Below, one piece after another: positions 4,998-61,604 of a stretch of DNA of 64,000 nucleotides; position 1 is the stretch's first letter, and every line of letters begins with the position of its first letter. Origin of the DNA: Bacilli bacterium (GTDB lineage Bacteria; Bacillota_I; Bacilli_A; RF39; UBA660); the NCBI GenBank assembly GCA_017436345.1, contig JAFSDH010000004.1, positions 200,084-264,083 on the forward strand, in the 5' to 3' direction. The notes under the pieces are model-generated. The model saw only the letters and a list, made by a program, of their open reading frames with translations. It was not told the origin of the DNA and did no database searches. A program made the position numbers and the translations under genes.

Positions 4998-5028
4998 AAT
5001 AGTTAAATTTAATTAACTATTTTTTTTA
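4998..5028 (+). terminator. Intrinsic terminator
   Basis: AATAGTTAA, loop, TTAACTATT, then a T-run. Confidence 0.7.
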
Positions 5029-5037
5029 TTAAACTAA

Positions 5038-5046
5038 TGTTATAAT
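5038..5046 (+). promoter_or_regulatory. Extended -10 element (TGTTATAAT)
   Basis: TGnTATAAT lies 20 nt upstream of the SD of 5067..6140, right after the upstream terminator. Confidence 0.4.
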
Positions 5047-5066
5047 TAAAGTATAAAGGTGATAAT

Positions 5067-6140
5067 ATGAAAAATAAATTTATAATTATATTAACATTAC
5101 TATTTATTATAGTTCCCATTAGAACTGATGCTGCATCAATTAAAAGTACATCAGCTGTAGGATTAAGTTCTGTTGAAGTAGGAGAAGAAATAAAAGTAAA
5201 ATTTTATATCAACTTTGATGGAGTAGATAAAAATGATAAAGAGAGTTTAGGAATATATGAATTAGCATATGAAATTATGTATGATCCGAGTGTATTAGAA
5301 TTAAAGACAATTTATTCCAGTGGTTTTAATTCTTTTGTATTTGAAGAAAATGGAGCGTATTTTGCATACAGTATCTTACAAAAAAATATACCAAGTACAG
5401 TAAGATGTAGTGATGGAGTTTTATTTTGTTCTAGTTACATGATGGAAGCAACATTTAAAGCTTTAAATAACTCTAAAGAAACAACCGAAGTAAGTATTGG
5501 TGATGTTGAAGTAGGAGTTCATCCAATGACTACTGATGGTAATGTTTATGAAGATGATATAACTTATATTTCAACTTCATCTCTTGCTACTAAAAAAATC
5601 AAAATTACAAAACCAACAACTAATAATAATACAAATAATAATAGTAATAATAACACCAATAACTCAACAAATAATAAAGTAGAAAAAGAAGAAGAAAAAT
5701 CAAGTAATAAGTATTTAAAAGAATTAAAAGTAAAAAACTATGAAATTGATTTTAATAAAAATGAAAATAATTATACAATAACAATTCCTAAAGATATTAA
5801 TAGCTTAGAAATAGAAGCAACTCCAGAAGATGCAAAATCAACAGTTACAATAAATGGTAACGATGACTTAAAAAAGTATAATGATAAAATATTTATTGTA
5901 GTAACTTCCGAAGATGGATCAACTAATACTTATACAATTAGTGTTACTTATACAGAAGAGAACGAAGAGGTAGTAGAAGAAGTTGAAGAACTTGAAGAAA
6001 AAGACTCATTTAAGCTAACAAAAGATCAAATATTACTAATTGGAATTGCTTTAGGAATAATATTGATCATATTTATAATAATTATCATTGTAGTAAAAAT
6101 AAATGATAGAAAAATCGATAAAGCATTAGATGAACTATAA
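5067..6140 (+). CDS. Membrane-anchored surface protein with cadherin-like beta-sandwich module
   Basis: 357 aa. Signal peptide, N-terminal beta-sandwich (cohesin-like, weak call) and an Asn-rich linker TNNNTNNNSNNNTNNSTNN. The module YLKELKVKNYEIDF...STNTYTISVTY resembles the cadherin-like beta-sandwich domain. Acidic stretch, then a C-terminal TM helix. Confidence 0.6.
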   Translation: MKNKFIIILTLLFIIVPIRTDAASIKSTSAVGLSSVEVGEEIKVKFYINFDGVDKNDKESLGIYELAYEIMYDPSVLELKTIYSSGFNSFVFEENGAYFAYSILQKNIPSTVRCSDGVLFCSSYMMEATFKALNNSKETTEVSIGDVEVGVHPMTTDGNVYEDDITYISTSSLATKKIKITKPTTNNNTNNNSNNNTNNSTNNKVEKEEEKSSNKYLKELKVKNYEIDFNKNENNYTITIPKDINSLEIEATPEDAKSTVTINGNDDLKKYNDKIFIVVTSEDGSTNTYTISVTYTEENEEVVEEVEELEEKDSFKLTKDQILLIGIALGIILIIFIIIIIVVKINDRKIDKALDEL

Positions 6141-6166
6141 AAGTAGATATAAATCTACTTTTTTTG
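6141..6166 (+). terminator. Intrinsic terminator
   Basis: AAGTAGAT-ataa-ATCTACTT, then TTTTT. Confidence 0.7.
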
Positions 6167-6188
6167 ATATAATAATCTTGGTGATAAT

Positions 6189-6986
6189 ATGAAAAAGATA
6201 TTATTTTTACTTTCGATAATAGTATTTCTATATAGTCAAAATTTTTTATTAACAGTATCAAATTATAAAATAATTAATAGTAAAATCCCAGAAAGTTTTA
6301 ATAACTACAAGATTGTACAAATATCTGATTATCATAATGAAACTAATAAGTTATTAAATAATAAATTAATTAAAAAAATAAAAGATATAAAACCTAATAT
6401 TATAGTAATAACAGGTGATTTAATTGATTCTACTAATACTAATATTGATCAAGTTATAAAATTAGTTGATGGTATTAAAAATATCTCAGATATATATTAT
6501 GTAACAGGTAATCATGAAACATGGACTAACGAATATGAACAACTAAAAATAGAATTAGAAAAAAGAAAAGTTCATATTTTAAATAATGAAGCAGTAAAAT
6601 TAAAAAGCGATATTTCTGAAATAAATTTAATTGGTATAAACGATACCAAAACAAACGAAGAATTTCAGATAAACATTGAACAAGTAAATTATAATAAAAA
6701 TAATTATACAATCCTATTATCACATCGTCCTGAACTTTATAATGAATACGTAAAAAAAGACATTGATTTAGTTTTAACTGGACATGCGCATGGCGGACAA
6801 ATAAGAATATTTAATCAAGGATTAATTGCGCCTGACCAAGGGTTATTACCTAAGTATACTAGTGGATTAATAGAAGAAAACAATACAACAATGATAACTA
6901 GTAGAGGAATTGGTAATAGTGTTATTCCAATAAGAATAAATAATCATCCTGAATTAGTTGTAATAACTTTAAAAAATAAGAACTAA
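6189..6986 (+). CDS. Metallophosphoesterase (calcineurin-like, YkuE/YaeI-type) with N-terminal membrane anchor
   Basis: 265 aa. Motifs QISDYH, GDLID, GNHE, GHAHGGQ. Confidence 0.85.
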   Translation: MKKILFLLSIIVFLYSQNFLLTVSNYKIINSKIPESFNNYKIVQISDYHNETNKLLNNKLIKKIKDIKPNIIVITGDLIDSTNTNIDQVIKLVDGIKNISDIYYVTGNHETWTNEYEQLKIELEKRKVHILNNEAVKLKSDISEINLIGINDTKTNEEFQINIEQVNYNKNNYTILLSHRPELYNEYVKKDIDLVLTGHAHGGQIRIFNQGLIAPDQGLLPKYTSGLIEENNTTMITSRGIGNSVIPIRINNHPELVVITLKNKN

Positions 6987-7046
6987 ACCAACAGTCGATT
7001 GTTTTTTCCAAATATAAAAAATAAAATTATCATGAGGTGTAATAAT

Positions 7047-8123
7047 ATGGAAAATAATAAAATAGGTATGTTTATTCAACAACTTCGAAAAGAAAAAAGT
7101 TTAACGCAACAAGAACTAGGTGATAAATTATTTGTTACTGATAAAGCAGTATCAAAGTGGGAAAGAGGAATAAGTCTACCTGATATAGCTATTTTAGAAA
7201 ATTTAGCAAAAGAATTAGATGTTGATGTATCAGAAATACTAAGCGGTAAAAAAGGTAAAAAGAAAATTGATATTGATCAAGTTCTTGAAGAAGAAAGAAA
7301 CAAAATAAAAAATAATAATAGAAAAAAGATAATTATAATATCTATACCAATTATATTAATTATAATTTTATTAGTTTTCTTACTATTTAAACATATTTAT
7401 TTAGGATACAATCTAAAAACGATTAACTATAATCATACTTATTATCCTAAAGATATAGAAATAGGTATACCTAAATTATCATTTATGATGAAAAATAATG
7501 ATAGGAGTTATTCCTATAAAAATTTAAGAAGTGCAACTGTTTTAGAAACTGAAATAAAAAGATATTTGAAAACACTTGAATATGTTAATTGTAATGATAC
7601 AATTTACTATTATGATATAAAAAACGATTTTACAATTATTAATTACGGGGTAAAAGATAATCTTTTTTACAGTACTATTTCTTATGAAATTATTGATGGT
7701 GATTATTGTTTTATTAAAAAAAGTAAAGAATATACTGAAAAATTAAATTATTTAAGAGGTATTCATAATATGAATGGATACATTAAAGCAGAAGAAGAAT
7801 GGAATAGTAAATTAACTGTTACTTTTCAAGATGATATTGATATGGAAAAAAGACCATATAAATTTGTAGGTGAATTATTAGTTACTTATCATACTAATAA
7901 AAAGAAAAATAGAATGGACTATCAAAGTATAACTTTAGAAGCATCTCATGGTGAATTTGAAATAAAAGGAAATAAGTTGTACTATTATCGAAAAAAAATA
8001 ACAAAGCAAGATGAAAGTATAACAATACCAGAAGTATCAACATTTAATATTGAAGATGGTAAATTAATACTAGTTGATAATTATTTAAAAGATTATCATG
8101 ATAATGATATAGTTTTAAAGTAA
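7047..8123 (+). CDS. XRE-family HTH transcriptional regulator with TM helix and extracytoplasmic C-terminal domain
   Basis: The track ORF starts at 6999. ATG 7047 follows SD GAGGTG (7034-7039). HTH_3 motif LTQQELGDKLFVTDKAVSKWERG. TM helix IIIISIPIILIIILLVFLLF. Confidence 0.8.
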   Translation: MENNKIGMFIQQLRKEKSLTQQELGDKLFVTDKAVSKWERGISLPDIAILENLAKELDVDVSEILSGKKGKKKIDIDQVLEEERNKIKNNNRKKIIIISIPIILIIILLVFLLFKHIYLGYNLKTINYNHTYYPKDIEIGIPKLSFMMKNNDRSYSYKNLRSATVLETEIKRYLKTLEYVNCNDTIYYYDIKNDFTIINYGVKDNLFYSTISYEIIDGDYCFIKKSKEYTEKLNYLRGIHNMNGYIKAEEEWNSKLTVTFQDDIDMEKRPYKFVGELLVTYHTNKKKNRMDYQSITLEASHGEFEIKGNKLYYYRKKITKQDESITIPEVSTFNIEDGKLILVDNYLKDYHDNDIVLK

Positions 8124-44447: not shown

Positions 44448-44477
44448 AAATCTTATTAACTTTTTGTTAAAAACATA

Positions 44478-44516
44478 TTGACAAATTTATTTGTTATTAA
44501 TATAATGTTATTAACA
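44478..44516 (+). promoter_or_regulatory. Promoter of pncA operon with overlapping candidate NrtR operator
   Basis: TTGACA (44478-44483), 17 nt, TATAAT (44501-44506). Inverted repeat TGTTATTAA-N7-TTATTAACA (44492-44516). About 40 nt nearly identical to 51607-51645. Confidence 0.65.
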
Positions 44517-48618: not shown

Positions 48619-50127
48619 ATGAGTAAAAAAGAATGCGATGTTGAATATAAAATTCATAGTTTACTATTAAAACTAAAAAAAGATAATGGTAATATATATG
48701 AACCAACTAAAAGAATTTTAAAATATTTATATAAAACAGTAAAAGAAGATTATTTTGAGCATCATATAGAATCAGAATATCGTAAAGATAAAGAAGATCG
48801 AATTAAAGTAATGATAAGCGCTGAAAAATGTTTATTTGAATATTATGTTAATGAAGAAGAAGGCGTTTTAGAAAATTTAATTGCTTTATGTAATGATGAT
48901 CGTAAATACTTTTATAAATTTTATGAAGGAATTGAAACATTCTTAGAAATGTCTGAAAATAATCTATTTTCAAATTATGGAGTATATAAATATGTTTTTA
49001 ATATGTATGCAATGTTAAAAGCCTATCAATATCATCATGATTTTGAAACTTTCAGTGTAGTTGTTGATGATTTGTCTAATTTTTTTATTGAGTCTATTTT
49101 AGATTTAAATAATTCATCCTACTCTTCAAGTATGTTTGGACTTCCTAAAAGAGAATTTGTTCATAAACAAGAATTAATTGATATTATTATGAGTTGTAAA
49201 GGTTATGAAAATAGACCGTTTCTTAGAGAAAATTTAAAAGAAGTTCTAAATAGTATTAATGAACCATATTCTGAAGGATATTTAGAAAAATATAAAGAAA
49301 TATTAAGATGTTATAAAGAACTAATTGATTTCCAAGAACAAAATCCTAAACTAGATCAAAAAAATTTTGAATCTATTGAAAATGATTTACTTAAAAATCT
49401 TGAAGCATGTAGTAAAAACTATCGTGGATATAATTATGATCGCATTGAATTCTTTAATTACTTTTTACCAATCTTGTTACAAAACAAGCGTTACGATTTT
49501 TTCAAAAATGAGTTGAATACAATTGAAGAAAATATAAAATATCGTAAAGATATTTTAAAACAAGTAGGTACTTTAGATATAGATTTCTTTGAATTTTTAA
49601 ATAAAGAACTAAAAACAGAAAATGATTCATTTATTTCAACAATTAAAGTAGTTTTTGATAGTGACACTTACTATGAATTACAAAGTAAATTAAATGATTT
49701 AAAAAAAGCAAGTAATTTATATAAAGAAAATCCACAAGAAGCCTTACAAATAATTAAAGAATTAACTACAAACAAACATAAAGAAGTAATTGATGGTATT
49801 ATGATGATTTGGCCAAGAACAAATACTGTTAATCAAATAGAAAAGCCAAAAACAATTATTGAAAGAACAATAGCACTTCACAAAAGGCTTGAGTATCCGT
49901 TAGAAGAAAAAGTATATCATGATAAAGCAAATTCTAGCTATTATCAAAATACAATCAAAGATTTCGTTAATAGTATTCAAAATGAAATAGCAAGTAATAA
50001 AAAGAAAATTATTGATGATATGAAAAAGAAAGAAGAAGAAGCAAAAGCTCAAGAACAAATTCCTGAACCACCAAAAAAACAAAAAGGTTTAGGAAGTATC
50101 TTTTCTCAATTTAAAAATAATAATTAA
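48619..50127 (+). CDS. Hypothetical large helical protein (paralog A)
   Basis: 502 aa. Shares LLKLKK, VFDSDTY-EL--KLN-LK-A, KHK, I-KP-TI--R and a C-terminal KK-KG--SIF with the next gene. Confidence 0.65.
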   Translation: MSKKECDVEYKIHSLLLKLKKDNGNIYEPTKRILKYLYKTVKEDYFEHHIESEYRKDKEDRIKVMISAEKCLFEYYVNEEEGVLENLIALCNDDRKYFYKFYEGIETFLEMSENNLFSNYGVYKYVFNMYAMLKAYQYHHDFETFSVVVDDLSNFFIESILDLNNSSYSSSMFGLPKREFVHKQELIDIIMSCKGYENRPFLRENLKEVLNSINEPYSEGYLEKYKEILRCYKELIDFQEQNPKLDQKNFESIENDLLKNLEACSKNYRGYNYDRIEFFNYFLPILLQNKRYDFFKNELNTIEENIKYRKDILKQVGTLDIDFFEFLNKELKTENDSFISTIKVVFDSDTYYELQSKLNDLKKASNLYKENPQEALQIIKELTTNKHKEVIDGIMMIWPRTNTVNQIEKPKTIIERTIALHKRLEYPLEEKVYHDKANSSYYQNTIKDFVNSIQNEIASNKKKIIDDMKKKEEEAKAQEQIPEPPKKQKGLGSIFSQFKNNN

Positions 50128-50137
50128 GAGGTAGAAT

Positions 50138-51538
50138 ATGCAAAAAAATATTGAAAATCAATTAGCAATTAATTTATTAAAATTGAAAAAAGAAAGCAAA
50201 GAAAAATATGATCAAGCATTAAATATTATTGAATTTTTATATAAAGATATAAAAGAAGATGGTATTGACAAGATTATAGATTATCATAATGCTATTTATC
50301 AAACTAGTAGACAAATTGATAAATATGAAATAGTGAGTCGATTTAATGCATTAAAAAAGGAATTGTTCAGTAAATTTATTGAAAGTGATGATGGTGTATT
50401 AGATATATTATTTGAAATGCTTAATGATGAAGATAATCGCTTCAAAGATAAATTTTTTGAAAGTGTTGAAGTGTCAATTGATATTTTGAAAAGAAAAGTA
50501 AGTTCTAGTAGTAGTAGCTATTTATATGCTTTTAATATCTATACACTATTAAAAGCATATGAACAAAATAAAGATAATTATCATAATTTTGAAAAAATAC
50601 TAGATGATGTAGTATTTCTATTTATTCCAAACGAAGAAATGACAAATATATCATATACTTCCAATTATATGGAAAAGAAAAGCTTGATAGATAGTATTGT
50701 TAAAATTGCCGATTATAAAGAGCTAAAAAGCCTTCAAAATCTTTTGAAAAAAGTTCTTAATGGTATTACTAAAAGAAATAGTGAAACAGAAGTAGCGCGC
50801 TTAAACGAAATGTTTAATATGTATCATGAATTTTATTCAGATATAAGAAAGTTAACAAGATTAGGTTATAATATCCCAGATGACCTAAAAATTGAAATAG
50901 CCGATGATATATCTCTATTAGTTCATGATGATTTATTACCAGGGATTTATCCATATTATAATGGTTCATTATTACTAGAAAATAGATATAAATATTTTAA
51001 AGAAAAAATAAGAGTTGTAAATCCACACTACCGAAAAGAAGTGTTTGAATTTATAAAAAAACTAACTCCAGGAATCTTTGAAAATAAAATAGGTGAAAAA
51101 GATTCGTTTGAAGAATATATGGACATTGTTTTTGATAGTGATACATACAAAGAATTAATGAATAAACTAAATGTATTAAAAGAAGCTCATGATAAATACG
51201 TAAGCGGTAATAAAGATACATCTTATTTATTAGATGAGTTAAGCGATAAAAGACACAAAGATAGTTTTGGAAAAATAATTATTAGTTATGAAAGTAGTAG
51301 TAATAATAAAATAGATAAACCAAATACTATTGATAAAAGAATGAAAAACTTATATAAAAAATATGATTTAGTAGGAGAAGAATTTGATTTTGATGAACAA
51401 AAAGAAAACTTGAGTTCGTTAATTAGTATTATTGATGAAGAAATTTTAAATTATGATATAAAAAAGAATAATTTAAACTTTCCAAAATCAGAATCGCAAC
51501 CAGTAAAAAAGAAGGGAAAATTCTCAATATTTGGATAA
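50138..51538 (+). CDS. Hypothetical large helical protein (paralog B)
   Basis: 466 aa. Collinear with 48619..50127. 10-nt gap with SD AGAGGTAG. Confidence 0.65.
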   Translation: MQKNIENQLAINLLKLKKESKEKYDQALNIIEFLYKDIKEDGIDKIIDYHNAIYQTSRQIDKYEIVSRFNALKKELFSKFIESDDGVLDILFEMLNDEDNRFKDKFFESVEVSIDILKRKVSSSSSSYLYAFNIYTLLKAYEQNKDNYHNFEKILDDVVFLFIPNEEMTNISYTSNYMEKKSLIDSIVKIADYKELKSLQNLLKKVLNGITKRNSETEVARLNEMFNMYHEFYSDIRKLTRLGYNIPDDLKIEIADDISLLVHDDLLPGIYPYYNGSLLLENRYKYFKEKIRVVNPHYRKEVFEFIKKLTPGIFENKIGEKDSFEEYMDIVFDSDTYKELMNKLNVLKEAHDKYVSGNKDTSYLLDELSDKRHKDSFGKIIISYESSSNNKIDKPNTIDKRMKNLYKKYDLVGEEFDFDEQKENLSSLISIIDEEILNYDIKKNNLNFPKSESQPVKKKGKFSIFG

Positions 51539-51606: not shown

Positions 51607-51645
51607 TTGACGTTTTATTATGTTATTAATATAATGTTAATAACA
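51607..51645 (+). promoter_or_regulatory. Promoter of the prs-nadD-pnuC-nadR operon with overlapping candidate NrtR operator
   Basis: TTGACG (51607-51612), 17 nt, TATAAT (51630-51635). Perfect inverted repeat TGTTATTAA-N7-TTAATAACA (51621-51645). Confidence 0.7.
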
Positions 51646-51663
51646 AAGGAAGAAGTGATTGGA

Positions 51664-52077
51664 ATGGAAATGAAATTTACTAAAGATGATTCAGTCAAAT
51701 TTATTGAGGAATATTATCAAAAATTTGAAAGTAGAAATATTAATGCCAAAATAAAAAGCGAAAAAACAACTTGTGGTTATGGAATGGGTGAAATGGATAC
51801 TTGCAGTACTAGTATCGTAATTGAAGAAGAAATAGAAATAATGGGAATAAAAACTAAAACAACTGAAAGATTAGGCGAAGATAAATTATTAGGAATATTT
51901 AAAGCTGTTTTAGAAGATTATGGATATGATGTAAAAAGTGCGAAGTTTGATGATGGTATAAATCATACTTGGGAAGGATGTTATATGAATGAACATCAAG
52001 TAGCTAGAGTTTATTGTAAAGGAGTAGAACTAAGTGTTCAAAAGCTAGTTAAACAAAAGTCAATTGGAGGTAAATAA
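51664..52077 (+). CDS. Hypothetical protein, first gene of the NrtR-type operon
   Basis: 137 aa from ATG 51664 (SD AAGGAAG). The track start 51607 is the TTG of the -35 box. No motif recognised. Confidence 0.55.
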   Translation: MEMKFTKDDSVKFIEEYYQKFESRNINAKIKSEKTTCGYGMGEMDTCSTSIVIEEEIEIMGIKTKTTERLGEDKLLGIFKAVLEDYGYDVKSAKFDDGINHTWEGCYMNEHQVARVYCKGVELSVQKLVKQKSIGGK

Positions 52078-52078
52078 A

Positions 52079-53149
52079 ATGAATGATTTAAGATTAATAG
52101 TACTAGATAATATTGATGAAGTAGGAAAAAGTGTTAATGAACATTTAAAGAAATTAAATAATACTAACGAAGATTATATTATTCCAATTAAAAGAGATCG
52201 TTTTTCTAATGGTGAAGGGAAAATAAGTATTAATGGGATGATTAGAGATAAAGACATATTTATCTTAAGTGATGTAGGTAATTACAATATTACTTATAAT
52301 ATGCATGGGTTTACTCATCACATGGCACCAGATGAACACTTTCAAGACATTAAAAGAGTAATATCAGCTATTAGTGGATATGCAACTAAAATAACTCTAG
52401 TAATGCCACTTTTATATGAATCAAGACAACATAAAAGAAAAGGTAAAGAATCTCTTGACTGTGCTTTAGCTCTTCAAGAATTAGAAAGACTAGGAGTAAA
52501 TCATATTGTCACATTTGATGTTCATGATCCTAATGTTGGTAATGCTATTCCTAATCTACCATTTGAAAATTTCTATGTTGCTCATGAAATTCTAAATGAT
52601 TTAATAGATAATGAAGATATAAATAATTTACTTGTAATATCTCCAGATATGGGAGCTATGGAACGTGCTCGATATTTTGCTGAAATGTTAGGAACTGATG
52701 TTGGTGTTTTCTACAAAAGAAGAGATTTATCAAAAGTAGTAAATGGTAAAAATCCAATCGTAGAACACGTTTATTTAGGAAGTGATGTTAAAGATAAAAA
52801 TGTTATTGTTGTAGATGATATGATTGCTAGTGGATCATCTATGATCGAAGTTGCTAGAGACTTAAAAGAAAAAGGAGCTAAGAAAGTTTATTTAGTATCA
52901 ACTTTTGCTCTTTTAACTGAAGGACCAGATTGTTTTATAAAAGCTCATCAAGAAGGTTTATTTGATAAACTATACTCTACAAACTTATCTTATGTATCTG
53001 ATAAAATAAAAGAAGAAAAATGGTATCATTCCGTTGACATGTCAGAGAAAACAGCTAGAATAATAAACACAATGCATAAACATGAATCTTTAAAACCCTT
53101 ATTCAATGGAAAAAAAGAAATATTAGATAAATTAGAAAGGAATAAATAA
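52079..53149 (+). CDS. prs: Divergent ribose-phosphate pyrophosphokinase (Prs) paralog
   Basis: 356 aa from ATG 52079 (SD GGAGG 52066-52070). Prs-like blocks RFSNGEGKI, VMPLLYESRQHKRKGK (vs YARQDRK), DVHDP, KRRD, VVDDMIASGSS (vs DDMIDTGGT). Confidence 0.7.
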   Translation: MNDLRLIVLDNIDEVGKSVNEHLKKLNNTNEDYIIPIKRDRFSNGEGKISINGMIRDKDIFILSDVGNYNITYNMHGFTHHMAPDEHFQDIKRVISAISGYATKITLVMPLLYESRQHKRKGKESLDCALALQELERLGVNHIVTFDVHDPNVGNAIPNLPFENFYVAHEILNDLIDNEDINNLLVISPDMGAMERARYFAEMLGTDVGVFYKRRDLSKVVNGKNPIVEHVYLGSDVKDKNVIVVDDMIASGSSMIEVARDLKEKGAKKVYLVSTFALLTEGPDCFIKAHQEGLFDKLYSTNLSYVSDKIKEEKWYHSVDMSEKTARIINTMHKHESLKPLFNGKKEILDKLERNK

Positions 53150-53150
53150 T

Positions 53151-53729
53151 ATGAAAATAGGAATTTTCGGAGGAAGTTTTAATCCCCCACATAAAATGCA
53201 TGAATCAATTGCTAAGCAACTGATAGAAAGAAAAATTATTGATAAAGTTATTTTTGTTCCAACAAGTAACTTTTATCCTAAGGCAGGATTAATCAGTGAT
53301 GAACAACGTTATGAAATGTTAAGCTTAATGATTAAAAATAAAAAAGAATATTCTGTATCAGATTATGAATTTGGAAGATTAACATATACATATCAAACTT
53401 TAGAATATTTTAAAAATGAAAATAAAGATGATGAAATATATTTCATTTGCGGAAGTGATAATCTAGAACAAATTGATACATGGAGAGAATACGAAAAAAT
53501 ATTAGGAGACTATAAATTAGTTGTTATACCTAGAAAACATAATATGATTGAACTATTAAAAAAATATGACGAATATAAAAATAATATTATAATAGCAGAA
53601 CTAGATAATAATTATTTATCTTCTACATTAGTAAGAGAATATTTAAAAGAAAAAAAATATGAAAAAGTAAAAGAATATATTAGTAATGATGTATTAGACT
53701 ATATAATTAAAAATAATCTATATCTTTAG
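53151..53729 (+). CDS. nadD: Nicotinate-nucleotide adenylyltransferase
   Basis: 192 aa. GIFGGSFNPPHKMH and SSTLVR motifs. Confidence 0.9.
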   Translation: MKIGIFGGSFNPPHKMHESIAKQLIERKIIDKVIFVPTSNFYPKAGLISDEQRYEMLSLMIKNKKEYSVSDYEFGRLTYTYQTLEYFKNENKDDEIYFICGSDNLEQIDTWREYEKILGDYKLVVIPRKHNMIELLKKYDEYKNNIIIAELDNNYLSSTLVREYLKEKKYEKVKEYISNDVLDYIIKNNLYL

Positions 53730-53738
53730 AGGTGTTAT

Positions 53739-54446
53739 ATGAAAATCAAGAAAAAGAACAAAGAAAAAAATGCATTTAGAAAAATATTAAACAAGTTTAC
53801 TTATTTTGAATGGGGAATGGTTTTAGCTGTAATAGGTTTTACATTATATTTTTCTATTATTGATACTACTAATACGGTTTTGTATTTAATTATTGATGCG
53901 ATAGCAGCAATAAGTGGAATCTTATGTGTAGTACTATGTGCTAAAGGAAAAAAATCTCAATATATATGGGGACTTATTAATGTAATTGGATATGTAATAA
54001 TAGCATTTATTAATAAATATTATGGAGAAGTAATGTTAAATGCTTTATATTATTTACCATCTCAATTTATTGGATATTATCTATGGAATAAGCATACAAA
54101 CATTGAAACAGAAAATGTAGAAGGAAACAAATTAAATTTAACTAAATCTATTTTATTAGTAATAGTTTGTACAATCGGAATTTTATTATATAAATTAGTA
54201 TTAGACTTATTAGGAGGACAAGGAACGCTTCTAGATAGTGCATCTACTACAATTAGTATTTTTGCTAATTTACTTATGATGTTAAGATATAGAGAACAAT
54301 GGTTATTATGGATTATTATTGATTTTATAACTGTAGTAATGTGGATCTTAGCAAAAGACTTTATTATGGTAACTATGTGGAGTGTATATTTAATAAATGC
54401 ATTCTATGGATATTATAACTGGACTAAAATCTCAAAGGAGAGATAA
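53739..54446 (+). CDS. pnuC: Nicotinamide riboside transporter PnuC
   Basis: 235 aa, about 7 TM. YIWGLINVIGYVIIAFINKYYGE...QFIGYYLW and WSVYLINAFYGYYNW Trp-rich repeats typical of PnuC. Adjacent to nadR. Confidence 0.8.
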   Translation: MKIKKKNKEKNAFRKILNKFTYFEWGMVLAVIGFTLYFSIIDTTNTVLYLIIDAIAAISGILCVVLCAKGKKSQYIWGLINVIGYVIIAFINKYYGEVMLNALYYLPSQFIGYYLWNKHTNIETENVEGNKLNLTKSILLVIVCTIGILLYKLVLDLLGGQGTLLDSASTTISIFANLLMMLRYREQWLLWIIIDFITVVMWILAKDFIMVTMWSVYLINAFYGYYNWTKISKER

Positions 54447-54448
54447 TT

Positions 54449-55459
54449 ATGAAAAAAATTGGAATGTATGGGGGAAGTTTCAATCCTCTACACTTAGGAC
54501 ATGTAAATGATATTATTGAAGCAGCTAACCAATGTGAAAAATTATATGTTGTATTAAGTAATACTAATGATCCTAAGGAAATAGATCATCGTGAAAGATT
54601 AATGTGGCTTAAAAATGTAACAGCTGATATGGAAAATGTCGAAGTATTTGAAATTTTTGATCGCAATACATCAAAAGATACTTATGATTGGAATTTAGGA
54701 GCTCAAGATATAAAAAACTATATAAACGCGCCAATTGATGTTGTTTTTTCTGGAGATGATTATCAAGGAAGAAATATTTGGGAAACTCTATATCCTGAAA
54801 GTGAAATAGTTTATTTCCCTAGAGAAGAAATAAACATCTCATCTACTCAAATAAGAGAAGATCCATTTAAGTATTATGATTACTTGCCAAAGATTGTTCA
54901 AAAACACTATATAAAAAAAGTATGTGTATTAGGAACTGAAAGTTGTGGTAAATCCACACTAGTTAGAAATTTATCTAAATATTTTAATACAACATTTGTA
55001 GAAGAGGCCGGAAGATTTATTTGTGATGAAGCAGGTGGTATTGATAATATGCAAAAGTATCATTATTTTGAAATTCTTTTTAAGCATAAGCAACTAGAGA
55101 AAGACGCATTAGATCAAGCTAATAGAGTTTTATTAATTGATACTGATTCGTTAATAACTTTATATTATTATCAATTAGGTTTTGGTAATGAAACCAAAAC
55201 AGATCAAGACTTTGAAAAAATCGCAACATCTATTTCACATCTAAATGATTATGACCTATATATTTTCTTAGAACCAGATGTTAAATGGGTTCAAGATGGT
55301 ACAAGAACATATGGTGATGATGCTATAAGAAAAGAAAATAATAATAAATTAAAACAAATTTTAGATGCAAATGGTATAAAATATGTTAGTATAGAAGGTA
55401 CTTATCAAGAAAGATATCAAAAAAGTAAAGAAAAAGTAAAACAATTAATTGGGAGGTAA
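54449..55459 (+). CDS. nadR: Bifunctional NMN adenylyltransferase / ribosylnicotinamide kinase (NadR type, no HTH domain)
   Basis: 336 aa. GMYGGSFNPLHLGH at residue 5. Kinase P-loop GTESCGKST. Confidence 0.85.
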   Translation: MKKIGMYGGSFNPLHLGHVNDIIEAANQCEKLYVVLSNTNDPKEIDHRERLMWLKNVTADMENVEVFEIFDRNTSKDTYDWNLGAQDIKNYINAPIDVVFSGDDYQGRNIWETLYPESEIVYFPREEINISSTQIREDPFKYYDYLPKIVQKHYIKKVCVLGTESCGKSTLVRNLSKYFNTTFVEEAGRFICDEAGGIDNMQKYHYFEILFKHKQLEKDALDQANRVLLIDTDSLITLYYYQLGFGNETKTDQDFEKIATSISHLNDYDLYIFLEPDVKWVQDGTRTYGDDAIRKENNNKLKQILDANGIKYVSIEGTYQERYQKSKEKVKQLIGR

Positions 55460-55462
55460 TTT

Positions 55463-55864
55463 ATGTTTAGTGAAAAAGAATTAAATGAATTCGTAAATAG
55501 AATGTTTGAAAATGCTTCAACTAATAATAGTGATGCTAAAGAAGGATTACAAACATTTAGAAAGTATTTAGAAACAACAAAAATGTGTTCTAATGAATAC
55601 TTAAAAAAGCTAGATAAAATAATTGAATGTAGTAGTGAATTAATCGCATTAAAATCAAAAATAGGAACATTAGATGTAACAAGTATTATTAAAACTGAAC
55701 CTGAAAAAACACCAAGACAAAAACCAAGACAAAAGTCACTTGGAACATATCAACCATCAAGTTCTTGTATGAATTCCACTTCATCAAGTAGTCGTTGTGG
55801 TAATTCTTCATCATCATACTCAGATAGTTGTGGTGGAGGAAGTAGTTATACTAATCGCTGCTAA
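55463..55864 (+). CDS. Small protein with Ser/Cys-rich C-terminal tail (candidate radical-SAM substrate peptide)
   Basis: 133 aa. Helical N-terminal ~95 aa. The last 36 aa are PSSSCMNSTSSSSRCGNSSSSYSDSCGGGSSYTNRC. The SD GGGAGG lies in the last codons of nadR. The stop overlaps the next ATG (TAATG). Confidence 0.65.
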   Translation: MFSEKELNEFVNRMFENASTNNSDAKEGLQTFRKYLETTKMCSNEYLKKLDKIIECSSELIALKSKIGTLDVTSIIKTEPEKTPRQKPRQKSLGTYQPSSSCMNSTSSSSRCGNSSSSYSDSCGGGSSYTNRC

Positions 55865-56784
55865 TGAAAAATATAGAAATTTTTGGTCAAGAAATATTAG
55901 TAAAAGATTCTCTTTGTGGACCAAGTCCTGAAGCAAGATGGGAAGTAGAACCTAACTTAAGACTATATATAAAAGTAACTGATAGCTGCAATGCTAAATG
56001 TGCTTTTTGTGCTAATGGTACTTGTAAAGATTTTGGAAGTATAGATTTTCAAAAGTTAGAATTTGTAATTAGATATTTAAAAGATAATAATCGTCTTCAT
56101 AGTATTGCTTTAACTGGTGGCGAACCAATGATTAATCCAGATAAAGTTAATGATATGTTAAACTTAATTTGGAGTATTGATGAAAATATCGAAGTACAAA
56201 TATCTACTAATGGTCTAAACCTAAGGGAAATAGCTGGTTTTGATAATCCTAATAATTTAGAAAGTATCCATATTTCTAGACATCATTATGATGATAAAAC
56301 AAATATAGAAATATTTAAAACTGATACTATCGCAACAACTGATGATATAATGTTCTTACAAGATGCACTTAGTAATAAAAAAATAATAAATATAAATACA
56401 ATAGTAATGAAAGATTACATTGAAGATCTAGAAGGTATAAAAAGGATGTTAGATTATGTTGGAGAAACAGGAGTATATAAAAATGGCTTTGTTTCTTTAA
56501 TGAAATGTAATGATTATGCTAAAGATCATTTTATAAACTTTAATGATATATTTAACAATTTAGATAACAACTTTTTACTAGCTAAACGTTTTTTTGCAGG
56601 TGAATATTGTGAGTGTATAGATGGGGTTTATACTTCTAAAAATGCTAAATTAGTAGAATTTTATGCTAGAATGGTCAAAGATTGTTCCTGTCCATATACA
56701 ACACAATTAGTATATACTTCAGATAATAAAGTAACTGCAGGGTTTGGTAAAAAAGTATTATTAAAAGATTTTCCAAAAAAATAG
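55864..56784 (+). CDS. Radical SAM enzyme (small MoaA/maturase-like)
   Basis: 306 aa. LYIKVTDSCNAKCAFC (CX3CX2C), ALTGGEPM, and a C-terminal Cys pairs CEC...CSC. Confidence 0.85.
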   Translation: MKNIEIFGQEILVKDSLCGPSPEARWEVEPNLRLYIKVTDSCNAKCAFCANGTCKDFGSIDFQKLEFVIRYLKDNNRLHSIALTGGEPMINPDKVNDMLNLIWSIDENIEVQISTNGLNLREIAGFDNPNNLESIHISRHHYDDKTNIEIFKTDTIATTDDIMFLQDALSNKKIININTIVMKDYIEDLEGIKRMLDYVGETGVYKNGFVSLMKCNDYAKDHFINFNDIFNNLDNNFLLAKRFFAGEYCECIDGVYTSKNAKLVEFYARMVKDCSCPYTTQLVYTSDNKVTAGFGKKVLLKDFPKK

Positions 56785-56794
56785 AGGTGATATA

Positions 56795-57664
56795 ATGCTT
56801 GGTGCAATTATAGGTGATGTCGTAGGCTCTTACTACGAAGTGTTAGAAATAGAAGAAAGAAAAAATAATAAAAAAAATAGAAGTTATGAAGAAAGAATTA
56901 AAATTCTAGATGAAAATATTCCTTTATTTACTGATAAATGTTCAGCAACTGATGATTCAATTCTTACATGTGCAATCTACGATGCTATAAAAAATGGAAA
57001 TAGAGATTATGAAAAATATTTAAAAATATATGGCATAAGAGAAATTAATTTAGGAAAAGATATATATGGAAGAAGTAGATTTGGAAGTGGCTTTGTTGAT
57101 TGGTTAGAAGGAAAAAAAGAAGGAAATAGTTTTGGTAATGGCTCAGCTATGCGAATAAGTCCTGTTGGGTTTTGTTTTAATACTTTAGAAGAAGTAAAAG
57201 AAGAATCAAAAAAAGCAACTATTCCATCACATAATCATGTAAATGCGATTATAGCTAGTGAAGCAGTTGCAACGAGTATTTTTCTTTTAAGAAAAGGTAT
57301 GAGTAAAGAAGAGGTAATAAAATACATAAAAGATAACTATTATGATTTAAATTATGATTTGGAAACCCTTCAAAAAAACTATTCATTCTCATCAAAAGCA
57401 TCTAACTCTGTACCTCAAGCATTATATATCTTCTCTATAGCAAATAGCTTTGAAGATTCAATTAGAAAAGCAATATCAATAGGTGGAGATACCGATACAA
57501 TTGCAGCAATTGTTGGGTCTTTGTCAGAAAGCTATTATGGAATACCTGAAAATCTAAAACAAAGAGTAAAACCATACTTAAAAGATTATATGTATGATTT
57601 GTTAAAAGATAAATATTATAAAAAAGAAAAAGTAAGGGAGAAAAAATATGAAACAAATAATTGA
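56795..57664 (+). CDS. ADP-ribosylglycohydrolase family protein
   Basis: 289 aa. GAIIGDVVGSYYE, ATDDS, GNGSAMRISP, GGDTDTIAAIVGSL. Ends in TGA 57662-57664. Confidence 0.9.
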   Translation: MLGAIIGDVVGSYYEVLEIEERKNNKKNRSYEERIKILDENIPLFTDKCSATDDSILTCAIYDAIKNGNRDYEKYLKIYGIREINLGKDIYGRSRFGSGFVDWLEGKKEGNSFGNGSAMRISPVGFCFNTLEEVKEESKKATIPSHNHVNAIIASEAVATSIFLLRKGMSKEEVIKYIKDNYYDLNYDLETLQKNYSFSSKASNSVPQALYIFSIANSFEDSIRKAISIGGDTDTIAAIVGSLSESYYGIPENLKQRVKPYLKDYMYDLLKDKYYKKEKVREKKYETNN

Positions 57665-58112
57665 TTTACTAAAAGAAAAAAATAAGACAATATCAACTAT
57701 GGAATCTTGTACTGGTGGTGGAGTTGCTAACGCTATTACTAATATCGAAGGAGCTAGTGAAGTATTAAGATATAGTGCTGTAACATATTCTAATGAATAT
57801 AAAATAAAAATGGGTGTTAGTGAAGATATAATTAATAAATATAGTGTATACAGTATGGAAACAGCTATTGAAATGGCAACGAATATAGCAAATTTTGCAA
57901 ATAGTAATATTGGGGTAGGTATTACTGGTAAATTAAATAGAGTTGATATAAATAATCCATATGGAGAGGATAATGTTGTATTTATATCAATCTATGATAA
58001 AGATAATAATAAATATTATAATTACAAAGTAGAAGCAACTGAAGGATCCAGAAAAGAAAATAAAGATCTAGTTATAAATAAAATAAAAGAAGAGTTAATT
58101 AATATAATTTAA
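57648..58112 (+). CDS. pncC: CinA C-terminal domain protein / NMN amidohydrolase PncC-like
   Basis: 154 aa. STMESCTGGGVANAIT...GASEV...AVTYSNEYK...GVGITG. 17-nt overlap with the ARH gene. Confidence 0.8.
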   Translation: MKQIIDLLKEKNKTISTMESCTGGGVANAITNIEGASEVLRYSAVTYSNEYKIKMGVSEDIINKYSVYSMETAIEMATNIANFANSNIGVGITGKLNRVDINNPYGEDNVVFISIYDKDNNKYYNYKVEATEGSRKENKDLVINKIKEELINII

Positions 58113-58129
58113 CTCTTCTTTTATTTTTT
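58087..58129. terminator. Bidirectional terminator ending the NAD operon and the convergent PRT-like gene
   Basis: 12-bp stem AAGAAGAGTTAA / TTAACTCTTCTT, then TTATTTTTT. Confidence 0.75.
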
Positions 58130-58622
58130 ATTCACTAACTTTATGAAAATCATAATATCTATAAAAACTATGTACATCATCTTCTTTAACTTTACTACCA
58201 TCATAGAATACATAAGTACTTATAAGACTTCCTTGATTTTCTAAAACAGCATTTTTAATTTTATCTCTAGTTCTACCTAAATAGAAACTATCGTCTATAA
58301 AGATGATTTTCTTATTTTTGATATTATAATCTTCCCAAAAAGAAATAACATCATAATCTTTTCTTAATCCTCCATTAACAACAATTATTTTTTTATTAAA
58401 ATTTGCATCTAAGTAATTATTACAATAGTCTTTAAAAACAACACCAAATTTACCACTAACAATAATATAGTCAAACTTTTCATTTTCTAAAACCTTATTA
58501 ATCATCATATTAATTAAAGTTTTATCATCACGCAACTTTTCATCAATCGCATCAAAAAACTTTTCTCCACCTTCGTGTTGCTTCAAACATTCGTTAACAA
58601 GACTAGTCATCTTACAAACCAT
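58128..58622 (-). CDS. Phosphoribosyltransferase-like protein (type I PRT PRPP-loop)
   Basis: About 164 aa from ATG 58622 (SD GGGGGA). KIIFIDDSFYLGRTRDKI resembles the PRPP-binding loop. Confidence 0.5.
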   Translation of the reverse strand: MVCKMTSLVNECLKQHEGGEKFFDAIDEKLRDDKTLINMMINKVLENEKFDYIIVSGKFGVVFKDYCNNYLDANFNKKIIVVNGGLRKDYDVISFWEDYNIKNKKIIFIDDSFYLGRTRDKIKNAVLENQGSLISTYVFYDGSKVKEDDVHSFYRYYDFHKVSE

Positions 58623-58679
58623 TATAATCCCCCACAAACTTGCCATATTATATCATGTTTTTAAAAAAAAGTCAATTTA

Positions 58680-59883: not shown

Positions 59884-59908
59884 ACACTCAAAAGAGTGTT
59901 TTATTTAT
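59882..59908 (+). terminator. Intrinsic terminator
   Basis: AACACTC-aaaa-GAGTGTT, then TTATTTATT. Confidence 0.6.
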
Positions 59909-59952
59909 TGCATAAAATATTTTTTTGTGTTATAATCAAATTGTTAATAAGA
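59908..59952 (+). promoter_or_regulatory. nrtR promoter with third (weaker) copy of the operator
   Basis: TTGCAT (59908-59913), 17 nt, TATAAT (59931-59936). TGTTATAAT-N7-TTAATAAGA (59928-59952) matches the 51621-51645 repeat at 15 of 18 arm positions. Confidence 0.5.
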
Positions 59953-59964
59953 AGAGGTGTAACT

Positions 59965-60792
59965 ATGGAAAAAGAATATAAAACCGAAGAAGAATTTTTA
60001 AAGAATTATGATTCATCAAAGTTCGAAAAATTATCAGCAACAACAGATATTTTAATATTTAGTGTTGCATCTTCTAAACAAGATAATTATCGTAAATTAA
60101 ATAATAAACATTTTAGTGTCTTATTAGTAAAAAGAAAACAGCATCCTTTTAAAGATATGTGGTGTCTACCAGGTGGATTTATTGGTATTGATGAAACTAG
60201 TGAAGATGCAGCTAAAAGAGTTTTAGCTCGTGAAACTAATTTACATAATATTTATTTAGAACAATTATACACATTTGATGAAGTAAATCGTGACCCAAGA
60301 ATGCGTATCATTAGTATTTCTTATGTAGCATTAGTAGATAAAAATAGATTAGATGACACATTATATGAAGATGCATCTTGGTTCAATATGGAAATTGAAG
60401 AAGATGAAAAAAATATTAAAATTAATTTAGATAATGGAGAAGAAAATTTTGATGTTGTAATTAAAAAAACTTTAAAAGAATTAACAACAGATCGTTATAA
60501 ATATACAATTGAAAAAAATACTCGTATAGCATTTGACCATGCCAAAACAATAGCTAGTGGTATTTCTCGTATAAAAAACAAATTAGAATATACAGATATT
60601 GCATTTAATTTAATGCCAGAATATTTCACTTTAGGAGAATTACAACAAGTATATGAAGTTATTTTAGGGAAAAAGTTATTAGATCCTGCTTTCCGTCGTA
60701 TTATTGCATCAAAAGTAGAACAAACTGAAATGACAAGAGTTAATGGTGGACATCGACCATCTAAACTATTTAAATATAAAGGGAATAAGTAA
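59965..60792 (+). CDS. nrtR: Nudix-related transcriptional regulator NrtR
   Basis: About 275 aa from ATG 59965 (SD AGAGGTG). The Nudix box is degenerate (GFIGIDETSEDAAKRVLARETNL: REUxEExGU reads RVLARETNL). C-terminal winged-helix-like region (FTLGELQQVYEVILGKKLLDPAFRR). Embedded in NAD genes. Confidence 0.75.
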   Translation: MEKEYKTEEEFLKNYDSSKFEKLSATTDILIFSVASSKQDNYRKLNNKHFSVLLVKRKQHPFKDMWCLPGGFIGIDETSEDAAKRVLARETNLHNIYLEQLYTFDEVNRDPRMRIISISYVALVDKNRLDDTLYEDASWFNMEIEEDEKNIKINLDNGEENFDVVIKKTLKELTTDRYKYTIEKNTRIAFDHAKTIASGISRIKNKLEYTDIAFNLMPEYFTLGELQQVYEVILGKKLLDPAFRRIIASKVEQTEMTRVNGGHRPSKLFKYKGNK

Positions 60793-61604
60793 TGAAACGT
60801 TTAATTAATAAAATTAAACTTTTTCCTAATGATAATGAAAAAAGTAAAGAAATAGAAAAAATTCTAATCGAAAGATTAGAACTAGCTAACTTTGAAATAG
60901 TAGATAGCAAATATGATTTAGCTATTGCAATTGGTGGAGATGGATCTTTCTTACGAATGGTAAAAAATAATGTATTTGATACTGAAACATTTTATGTAGG
61001 TATAAATGCTGGTACTTTAGGCTTTCTTCAAGAAATATCTATTGATGATATCGATATTTTTATAGAAAGATTGAGTAGTAATGATTTTACGATTCAAAAT
61101 TTTGGAATCCAAGAAACAAAAGTCACTACTAAAGATGGAAATATATCAAGATTTTATTCACTAAATGAAATAGTTGTTCGTGATAGAAATTTAAAAACAG
61201 CAAAATTAATTATCGAAATAGATAATGAATTATTAGAAAAATATATTGGTGATGGTGTTCTTGTATCGACATCAATTGGTTCTACAGCATATAATTTAAG
61301 TTTTGGTGGATCAATTGTATATGATGATTTACATACGCTTCAAATAACACCAATCGCACCCCTTAATACTAAAAGTTATCGTGATGTATTAAATTCTATT
61401 ATCATTCCTGAAAACAGAACAATAACAATAAAACCAACTGATGAAACAACTAGTTTAATAATTAGCGTTGATGGTGAAACAAATACTTATAAAGATGTAG
61501 AAGAAATAAGTACTATTGTAAGAAATAAAAAAATCAAATGTATAAGAATGAATAATTTTAGTTATGCTAAAAAGATAAATGAAAAGTTTTTAACTGAAAA
61601 ATAG
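60792..61604 (+). CDS. nadK: NAD kinase
   Basis: 270 aa. GGDGSFLR, TLGFL, SLNEIVV, STSIGSTAYNLS. Confidence 0.9.
   Translation: MKRLINKIKLFPNDNEKSKEIEKILIERLELANFEIVDSKYDLAIAIGGDGSFLRMVKNNVFDTETFYVGINAGTLGFLQEISIDDIDIFIERLSSNDFTIQNFGIQETKVTTKDGNISRFYSLNEIVVRDRNLKTAKLIIEIDNELLEKYIGDGVLVSTSIGSTAYNLSFGGSIVYDDLHTLQITPIAPLNTKSYRDVLNSIIIPENRTITIKPTDETTSLIISVDGETNTYKDVEEISTIVRNKKIKCIRMNNFSYAKKINEKFLTEK

Follow-up and report, generated by a model that had tools for sequence, protein, structure and literature searches.

A cysteine-ended protein paired with a radical SAM enzyme

The window analyzed here is a 64,000-nucleotide stretch of contig JAFSDH010000004.1 from a Bacilli bacterium. One of its two operons for nicotinamide adenine dinucleotide (NAD) metabolism contains a gene for a 133-amino acid (aa) protein with a C-terminal cysteine, translationally coupled to the gene for a radical S-adenosylmethionine (SAM) enzyme. 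The pairing of the two genes, their coupling, the near-invariant terminal Cys, the set of cysteines in the enzyme and the recurrent NAD salvage neighborhood were observed directly. By sequence comparison, the conserved unit consists of a small helical protein and a non-SPASM radical SAM enzyme of ~300 aa with an SRHH motif, and no curated family covers this pair. From these observations we infer that the small protein is a substrate, that the enzyme holds an auxiliary cluster, and that their chemistry has a role in NAD metabolism. The preferred interpretation, to which a probability of roughly 40% is given, is that the tail of the small protein is the target of its cognate enzyme, at the terminal Cys or close to it, and that the product serves pyridine nucleoside salvage. 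The features of the pair are as follows, with the basis of each in parentheses (AF2, AlphaFold2; ORF, open reading frame).

55463..55864, + strand: 133-aa small protein, cognate partner of the radical SAM enzyme (database matches and upstream position in relatives)
55463..55690, + strand: helical N-terminal domain, in which residues 4-67 form four main helices, proposed to serve for docking or as a leader (AF2, conservation, HHalign)
55754..55861, + strand: disordered Ser/Cys-rich tail PSSSC...SCGGGSSYTNRC (sequence, AF2, alignment of homologues)
55859..55861, + strand: codon of the C-terminal Cys, which is nearly invariant in the family (sequence and upstream-ORF census)
55864..56784, + strand: 306-aa non-SPASM radical SAM enzyme of an uncharacterized family (PF04055 and PF13353 as sole Pfam matches)
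55915..55917, + strand: C18, invariant N-terminal Cys, candidate auxiliary-cluster ligand (44-sequence alignment A3)
55987..56010, + strand: CNAKCAFC radical SAM cluster motif, C42, C46 and C49 (invariant in alignments A2 and A3)
56275..56295, + strand: SRHHYDD family signature (alignments A3 and A4)
56608..56616, + strand: C249-E-C251, invariant CxC, candidate auxiliary-cluster ligands (alignment A3)

The small protein and its tail

An earlier reading of the region, made from the letters alone (the sequence-only reading), had singled out the tail of the small ORF and its coupling to the enzyme gene, and all of its sequence-level statements on these points were correct on re-reading. The last 36 residues (55754-55861) are PSSSCMNSTSSSSRCGNSSSSYSDSCGGGSSYTNRC, and a recount gave exactly the 16 Ser, the 4 Cys and the final Cys that had been described. 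Among the 63 ORFs of at least 100 aa in the window this composition is the extreme: Ser and Cys make up 20 of the 36 residues, compared with 9 in the runner-up 36-residue stretch, and a C-terminal Cys was found in 1 of the 63. The Cys share of residues in the window is 1.0%. Tandem Repeats Finder (TRF) detected no tandem DNA repeat under 55754-55861, and an origin of the tail by recent repeat expansion was rejected on this result.

Database searches returned 34 homologues of the small protein. In a 28-sequence alignment the N-terminal part is strongly conserved, and the end is also conserved as ...SSSYSDSCGGGSxYTxRC. Because this motif is kept among the 28 aligned homologues down to ~50% identity, the tail is not a matter of chance, and its expected conservation among close homologues is borne out. 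What deserves attention is the C-terminal Cys together with the helical N-terminal domain, rather than the regular spacing of the cysteines that had been suggested for testing. In the AF2 model, four helices (residues 4-67; predicted local distance difference test score, pLDDT, ~80) precede a disordered tail (residues 78-133). The all-helical N-terminal domain has no counterpart in the PDB, where Foldseek returned nothing at E < 2. Searches of Pfam, NCBIfam, PHROGs and PADLOC with the small protein gave no significant match, only a marginal one to HslJ and a sub-threshold one to the YxzE-like bacteriocin family PF25184 (18.7 bits against a gathering score of 40), the latter resulting from the low-complexity tail. 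Most relatives of the window protein (L001, L004, L015 and L023 among the related loci, which are designated by L numbers) have a KHYxHY His/Tyr motif before the Ser/Cys-rich part, and the window protein itself lacks it.

Pairing and the terminal Cys across related loci

The comparison took in ~115 related loci, made up of 80 metagenomic loci that were retrieved by enzyme sequence alone, the contexts of distant homologues, and phage records. Metagenomes were searched with a 12-sequence alignment of the enzyme (A4); the 44-sequence alignment (A3) was too divergent for this use. Since retrieval relied on the enzyme sequence only, the sample is unbiased for gene context. The upstream ORF was defined as the longest + strand ORF ending beside the enzyme gene, or beside an intervening HemN-like gene.

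In all 24 evaluable close loci the end of an ORF of 116-148 aa lies no more than a few bases from the start of the enzyme gene, and all 24 of these ORFs end in Cys; the two genes are also adjacent in most of the distant loci, in agreement with the co-occurrence that had been anticipated. Over the whole range of enzymes (27-100% identical), a C-terminal Cys is found in 84 of the 91 unique small ORFs upstream, and part of the exceptions are spurious ORFs in GC-rich DNA. Exceptions of another kind are L027, L088 and L030, where the small gene is located one gene further upstream, and all three small proteins end in Cys. A BspA-type leucine-rich repeat protein is encoded between the small gene and the enzyme gene in L027 and L088.

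Homology of the conserved N-terminal domain extends across clades (HHalign probability 98.6%, 98.4% and 85%), and the tails vary in length, in composition and in the number of S-rich or CG units. Serine is lineage-specific, ranging from 0 to 28 in the last 45 residues, with 5 or fewer in 19 of 90 Cys-ended homologues. The terminal Cys is the sole Cys of that segment in 13 of the 90, and the tails of the distant clade D, which end ...RRRRLxxxLxP[GSH]C, have a single Cys. In many other tails a second Cys lies 6-12 residues before the terminal one, in the pattern C-G-x(3-9)-R-x-C.

The Shine-Dalgarno sequence of the small ORF in the window, GGGAGG, is formed by the last two sense codons of nadR and is followed by TAA, 3 bases and the ATG at 55463; at the other end, the TAA of the small ORF overlaps the ATG of the enzyme gene as TAATG (55862-55866). 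Both details had been read correctly before. A stop/start overlap or a gap of 0-3 nucleotides separates the two genes in most loci, which implies co-translation at similar amounts.

Two small-protein/enzyme pairs lie side by side in L029 and in L042, with similar N-terminal domains and different tails; in L029 one paralogue ends in ...SSSGGFSHC and the other contains repeated GxCGRFW. Such differences are expected if each enzyme reads its own tail. The L029 pairs occupy positions 3825-7912, and the tandem pairs of both loci are inside one NAD operon with a HemN-like gene. In each tandem the second small protein has repeated GxCGRFW and is not Cys-ended. L029 also has a truncated MiaB-like radical SAM gene, which brings its radical SAM genes to four.

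Serine content and the ADP-ribosylglycohydrolase

The gene that follows the enzyme gene in the window is the following.

56795..57664, + strand: ADP-ribosylglycohydrolase (ARH) family protein, a lineage-specific insert between the enzyme gene and pncC (PF03747, 105.9 bits)

The match to PF03747 compares with a gathering score of 26.2 bits, so that the protein is a member of the family, with DraG, Tri1 and ARH3 as candidate sub-families; among solved structures MJ1187, Lmo0067 and ARH3 come nearest, each as a weak match. The sequence-only reading had offered the idea that the Ser-rich tail is an ADP-ribose acceptor or carrier, with the ARH as its eraser. Consistent with this idea, the ARH gene comes directly after the enzyme gene in the window and in 10 related loci, the protein is weakly similar to the Ser-specific ARH3 over its C-terminal 50 residues, and L109 has a macro-domain-like gene (assigned by eye) and an ARH-like gene in the vicinity of the module. 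However, these 10 retrieved loci and the window are a minority and most loci have no ARH. In L011 a MiaB-like radical SAM gene occupies the ARH slot. Ser-richness is not conserved, as the range of 0-28 Ser and the clade D tails illustrate, and no ADP-ribosyltransferase is present among the annotated or marker-identified genes of these operons. For these reasons the acceptor idea fails, and since it also leaves the radical SAM enzyme without a role, we regard it as highly improbable. On the distribution of the gene, ARH would be a lineage-specific accessory rather than a core part of the system.

The radical SAM enzyme and its invariant residues

Close homologues of the enzyme number more than 305. 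When 1.84 billion representative proteins were searched with a profile, 129 clusters (50% identity, E < 1e-30) were returned, nearly all of ~300 aa with full-length matches. In a scan of one genome per species the enzyme was found in 18 species, all represented by metagenome-assembled genomes (MAGs) of uncultured gut Bacilli/'Tenericutes' (such as Candidatus Coprovivens and Candidatus Faecimonas). The genomes closest to the window are also MAGs of uncultured gut Bacilli/'Tenericutes', for example of these two taxa.

Alignment A3 comprises 44 diverse members at a mean column identity of 34%. Invariant in it are C18, the CxxxCxxC motif, a GGE motif, the Ser of SRHH and C249/C251. The Arg and first His of SRHH are nearly invariant in A3, and its second His is invariant in A4. 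The motifs CNAKCAFC, C249-E-C251 and C274-S-C276 are all present in the window enzyme as had been noted, but C274/C276 are not conserved in A3, and this part of the earlier description does not extend to the wider family. Because the three extra cysteines C18, C249 and C251 are invariant, they suggest an auxiliary [4Fe-4S] cluster with an open iron.

Only PF04055 (Radical_SAM) and PF13353 (Fer4_12) were matched in Pfam, in line with the remark that the enzyme has no obvious full SPASM domain or recognition element (RRE) for peptides that are made by ribosomes and modified after translation (RiPPs). PqqD is absent, and no PqqD-like RRE was matched in Pfam by the enzyme, the small protein or the neighboring genes. 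The proposed comparison with profiles of radical SAM families placed the enzyme in no characterized family. The curated MoaA models TIGR02666, TIGR02668 and NF001199 gave 70.4, 57.5 and 55.8 bits against cutoffs of 284, 325 and 231, and the viperin model NF038283 gave 45.6 against 180. Named peptide maturase models gave 21-32 bits against cutoffs of 265-625. HxsC reached 41.8 of the required 267.9 bits over the N-terminal core only, and HxsB and HxsD are absent; the HYxHY motif of some tails is not a His-Xaa-Ser repeat array. NCBIfam scans of nine distant relatives of the enzyme gave the same weak MoaA, HxsC and viperin matches. Sequence and fold searches of the PDB found generic radical SAM cores only, with MoaA and viperin as the best (template modeling, TM, score ~0.55). 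A defense system was considered and rejected: PADLOC gave a pVip match of 53.9 bits that covers the radical SAM core only (profile positions 4-148 of 257), and neither the small protein nor the ARH had a match.

The NAD operon and its control

The operon that contains the pair and the related features of the window are as follows.

51607..51635, + strand: promoter-like site TTGACG, 17 nucleotides, TATAAT (11 of 12 consensus positions)
51621..51645, no strand: operator, a perfect palindrome TGTTATTAA-N7-TTAATAACA that spans the -10 box and is probably bound by NrtR (sequence)
44492..44516, no strand: second copy of the operator with 1 mismatch, upstream of the pncA-pncB-nudix-nadE operon (pattern search)
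44451..44475, no strand: weaker copy of the operator (pattern search)
51664..52077, + strand: conserved protein of ~136 aa at the operon head, unknown FTKEE..IEEYY..LEGR family (homologues at the same position)
52064..53149, + strand: Prs-like ribose-phosphate pyrophosphokinase homologue (PF13793, PF00156, PF14572)
53151..53729, + strand: NadD-like nucleotidyltransferase (PF01467, 84.6 bits)
53739..54446, + strand: PnuC nicotinamide riboside transporter (PF04973, 151 bits)
54449..55459, + strand: NadR, nicotinamide mononucleotide (NMN) adenylyltransferase and ribosylnicotinamide kinase, without helix-turn-helix (HTH) part (NF005988, PF01467, PF13521)
57648..58112, + strand: PncC/CinA-type NMN amidohydrolase (TIGR00199, 80.1 against 68.9 bits; PF02464)
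59896..60792, + strand: NrtR-like Nudix/winged-helix regulator, start codon uncertain (NF050029; homologues with PF21906)
60792..61604, strand not stated: NAD kinase, NadK (tblastn)

Domain matches and the reading of the sites agree with the earlier statement that ARH and pncC follow the enzyme gene in one operon behind the operator-bearing promoter. The palindrome is found upstream of both NAD operons, and at up to 3 mismatches it has 11 matches in the window compared with 1.0 expected; it is likely an NrtR operator. The NrtR-like regulator scores 153.6 bits, below the NF050029 cutoff of 400, and its homologues carry PF21906 (WHD_NrtR). No terminator-like site was found on the + strand in 51607-58112. 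A search of 43000-64000 with Rfam gave no match at E up to 0.1, and riboswitch control was rejected on this ground. Because the promoter and operator are shared and no terminator-like site or riboswitch was found, the small-protein/enzyme pair is, as read from the sequence, predicted to be expressed as part of the operator-controlled NAD operon.

NadR scores 208 bits against the NF005988 cutoff of 201 over profile positions 63-407, and the HTH part (1-62) is absent. The protein at 51664-52077 has no match in Pfam, NCBIfam, PHROG or PADLOC, and its homologues hold the same position in L001, L004 and many loci of the window clade. Its real start is probably the ATG at 51664 or 51670, since the TTG at 51607, at which the mechanically called ORF begins, falls on the -35 box.

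Recurrence of the NAD context

The gene order unknown-Prs-NadD-PnuC-NadR-small protein-radical SAM-PncC-NadK recurs in relatives, and over enzyme identities of 54-100% the pair keeps its slot between nadR and pncC. The association also goes much deeper than the one operon from which a tie to NAD status had been proposed. PnuC and/or NadR-like genes are found no more than 8 kb away from the enzyme gene in four lineages that are less than 50% identical to each other: in 55 of 94 loci of the large cluster; in 9 of 11 loci of a distant clade, often as a compact unit of small protein, radical SAM, NMN adenylyltransferase (NMNAT) and PnuC; in 2 of 4 loci of a clade in which DUF2201/VWA and MoxR-type AAA genes follow; and in the 642-kb phage LR756502. 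The phage encodes a 129-aa protein that ends in ...GGGYSTSRC and the enzyme, convergent with NadR and PnuC. In this record (LR756502.1; L113, 142141-154794) the convergent genes also include one for a protein that resembles a TonB-dependent receptor by eye.

In a further clade the enzyme is paired with a HemN-like class-C radical SAM gene, and in L025, L029 and L042 of that clade the pair lies inside a pncB-nadE-nadD-...-pncC-nadK-nrtR operon. In the metagenomic protein P0163 (737 aa) a HemN-like class-C radical SAM domain (1-430) is fused to a member of the enzyme family (440-735), which argues that the two enzymes act on the same substrate. Tailoring-type partners of related clusters are HemN-like, MiaB-like, RlmN-like, or MIO-lyase-like with a second radical SAM gene. 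The module is also found away from NAD genes (L026, L028, the phage-like L030, L112, L114, and L058/L089). As it occurs both with and without NAD genes, the gene contexts indicate that the pair is an autonomous two-gene unit that has repeatedly been recruited to NAD salvage.

These contexts also bear on an ordinary cassette for a RiPP-type natural product or bacteriocin, for which the position in NAD operons would have no functional meaning. Such a cassette would account for a precursor-like protein that adjoins a radical SAM enzyme, for hypervariable Cys-containing tails, for tailoring-type neighbors in some clades and for the sporadic presence in phages; the sub-threshold match to the YxzE-like bacteriocin family points the same way. 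It would leave unexplained why the PnuC/NadR association recurs in four lineages and why the nadR-pncC slot is fixed. Moreover, the identified neighbors include no peptidase, ABC exporter or immunity gene, and the protein has no signal or double-glycine leader, its N-terminal domain being a folded 70-aa bundle. We consider this explanation improbable.

Several observations concern the other settings of the module. In one distant clade a DUF2201 (VWA-like) gene comes after the enzyme gene in L027, L088, L092 and L096, and a MoxR-type AAA_5 gene is next in L027, L088 and L096; elsewhere, pairs of DUF2201/VWA and MoxR-type AAA proteins function in metal-cofactor insertion. In L058 (7980-10472) and L089 (6941-9444) the module is followed by a gene for a 508-aa histidine/aromatic ammonia-lyase-like protein, labeled by eye from the ASG (MIO) motif only, and then by a gene for a 315-aa radical SAM protein; the tails in these two loci end ...HYxxxC. 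Carriers of the module that are huge phages or of megaphage size are L113, L112 (LR756501.1), L114 (a 185-kb IMG/VR contig) and L115/L116 (contigs of 445-467 kb). For P0429, a related enzyme, 192 contigs are listed, of which the longest has 584 kb.

Possible mechanism of the pair

Strict pairing, translational coupling, a docking domain followed by a variable tail, the terminal Cys and the differing tails of paralogues are best explained by an enzyme that acts on the tail. In the proposed mechanism, the folded helical N-terminal domain of the small protein would serve as a docking or 'leader' domain, and the disordered tail would hand its C-terminal Cys to the dedicated ~300-aa non-SPASM enzyme. 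Beside the CxxxCxxC cluster, C18, C249 and C251 would hold an auxiliary [4Fe-4S] cluster with one open iron, to which the terminal Cys would bind through its thiolate and free carboxylate. Under this proposal the conservation of Cys at the last position would be explained, because only a final Cys offers both groups. By analogy, a Cys so placed suits either chelation of an open iron or oxidative decarboxylation; CteB, HydG and MftC are precedents for cluster-iron chelation or oxidative decarboxylation. The 5'-deoxyadenosyl radical would then take a hydrogen from the tail, leading to a C-S cross-link or to oxidative decarboxylation of the terminal Cys, the latter being comparable to the action of MftC on the C-terminal Tyr of MftA. 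Finally, the modified protein or a fragment of it would work with pyridine nucleoside salvage by PnuC and NadR, in the window as a product of the operon under the NrtR-type operator.

Several points weigh against this interpretation. The terminal Cys is missing in L115, a megaphage-sized contig (...DGCSGSRTYYGSLWANRDKAH), in L084 (...SSGCS) and in the second paralogues of L029 and L042. Among the annotated or marker-identified genes of the operons there is no peptidase, exporter or immunity gene. A 1:1 translational coupling is unusual for RiPP precursors and would fit a complex partner or a sacrificial donor equally well. The auxiliary cluster is deduced from conserved cysteines alone, and the AF2 model of the enzyme has moderate quality, with a pLDDT of 72 that falls below 50 over the last 35 residues. 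The nearest relatives of the enzyme by sequence and fold, MoaA and viperin, act on nucleotides, weak as the resemblance is (TM ~0.55). In addition, the proposal offers no route from the modified small protein to NAD salvage.

The main alternative is that the enzyme acts on a pyridine nucleoside or nucleotide (nicotinamide riboside, NMN, nicotinic acid mononucleotide, NAD or ADP-ribose) and that the small protein is an accessory, as a sacrificial sulfur donor, as a reductant (dithiol or H-atom) whose C-terminal arm swings, or as an Fe-S carrier for the auxiliary cluster. The weak matches to MoaA and viperin would be accounted for in this way, as would the tight 1:1 coupling and the location inside NAD operons or in four-gene units with NMNAT and PnuC. 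The C-G-x(3-9)-R-x-C pattern of many tails resembles a redox-active dithiol arm, some partner enzymes are MiaB-like or RlmN-like, families that modify adenine rings, and LarE and THI4 are generally known to draw the sulfur for NAD-derived substrates from a Cys of their own. On the other hand, side-by-side paralogous pairs with different tails argue that the tail is read specifically, and a sulfur or electron donor fits these paralogue-specific tails less well than it fits the nucleotide-enzyme resemblance and the coupling. A dithiol is not the general mechanism, since 13 of 90 tails have one Cys only. The module also occurs with no NAD gene nearby, on phage-like contigs and in other contexts, and we know of no step in an NAD pathway that needs radical chemistry. 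Action on a nucleotide is therefore seen as a serious possibility on the unlikely side.

In a more far-reaching reading, the C-terminal Cys might be where a new prosthetic group or cofactor, made from a pyridine nucleotide or from the peptide itself, is assembled or attached, or else it might be the sacrificial sulfur source for a thiolated pyridine nucleotide; this reading is considered unlikely. Both variants of it would amount to an unrecognized radical SAM-dependent branch of NAD metabolism in anaerobic gut Firmicutes, which huge phages carry together with PnuC and NadR.

Comparison with known systems

Broadly, the pair is similar to those radical SAM systems that have a precursor. What sets it apart is its non-SPASM, non-RRE enzyme family, its folded leader domain, its terminal Cys and its recurrent embedding in NAD salvage. 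The systems for mycofactocin (MftA/MftC) and pyrroloquinoline quinone (PqqA/PqqE) likewise encode a small precursor beside a radical SAM enzyme. In mycofactocin synthesis the C-terminal Tyr is oxidatively decarboxylated and then cross-linked, and the product is tied to NAD-binding nicotinoproteins. MftC and PqqE, however, are SPASM enzymes that need an RRE or PqqD-type chaperone, and neither domain is present here (TIGR03962, 29 against 265 bits). The precursor here is also longer (95-190 aa), with a folded four-helix domain and a terminal Cys instead of Tyr, and no peptidase is encoded.

SCIFF/ranthipeptide and sactipeptide systems (CteB, PapB) of anaerobic Firmicutes likewise have a Cys-containing tail beside a radical SAM enzyme. 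In CteB the substrate Cys ligates the open iron of an auxiliary cluster, and this is the model for the present proposal. Their maturases contain SPASM domains with two auxiliary clusters, whereas the enzyme described here has no SPASM domain and scores 28 against 340 bits with PapB and 21 against 625 with StsB. To our knowledge, no NAD context has been described for these systems.

MoaA and viperin/pVip, the best sequence and fold matches, are similar in size to the enzyme. MoaA has an auxiliary cluster with three Cys ligands, the open iron of which binds the substrate. Its C-terminal CX2CX13C motif is not found in the enzyme, where the extra cysteines are C18 and the CxC of C249/C251. The context is neither that of molybdopterin synthesis nor antiviral, as the neighbors are NAD genes and not moa genes, and the enzyme is accompanied by a cognate small protein.

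LarE and THI4 are sacrificial Cys sulfur donors that act on substrates derived from nicotinic acid adenine dinucleotide and NAD, and SoxY has a carrier Cys on a C-terminal GGCGG arm. By analogy only, the small protein may be likened to them as a protein with a Cys on a flexible segment that could be a sulfur source or covalent carrier. It has no sequence or fold relationship to them, and they have no radical SAM partner.

A mobile two-gene phage pathway for NAD reconstitution, NARP3, consists of a PnuC-like transporter and a NadR-like enzyme (PMC13464706). LR756502 is similar in that it carries PnuC and NadR, convergent with the small-protein/enzyme pair. The abstract on NARP3 mentions no radical SAM enzyme or small protein, and the term 'radical SAM' was not found in the text of the paper (PMC13464706).

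Significance

Full-text literature searches on radical SAM enzymes with NAD salvage genes or with a terminal Cys found no description of the pair. Throughout a whole clade of Bacilli from the guts of humans and animals, the NAD operon has an uncharacterized radical SAM enzyme and a dedicated Cys-ended protein as a fixed component, and distant Clostridia-like lineages and a 642-kb phage have the same pair beside PnuC/NadR. The NAD salvage pathway is considered fully mapped, and the pair points to an unknown step, cofactor or carrier in the metabolism of NAD (vitamin B3). If the pair contributes to NAD supply, it would represent a new oxygen-sensitive step or cofactor in the vitamin B3 metabolism of the microbiome, and it might add a component to the NAD-reconstitution strategies of phages. 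Radical SAM enzymology gains from it a compact non-SPASM enzyme whose protein substrate or partner is built in and genetically defined. As the key residue is known beforehand, the pair is directly testable by co-expression and mass spectrometry.

Other features of the window

A phage origin of the window was rejected, as DNA similarity to phage records covers 2-4% of the query, in pnuC/nadR or unannotated DNA. Two adjacent ORFs between the NAD operons, 48619-50127 (502 aa) and 50138-51538 (466 aa), appear by eye to be related to each other; neither has a match in PHROGs, the only library searched for both. Divergent from the end of the operon, 58128-58646 (- strand) encodes a 172-aa protein that has a phosphoribosyltransferase-like motif, KKIIFIDDSFYLGRTRD, and no family match, and that is conserved in L007.

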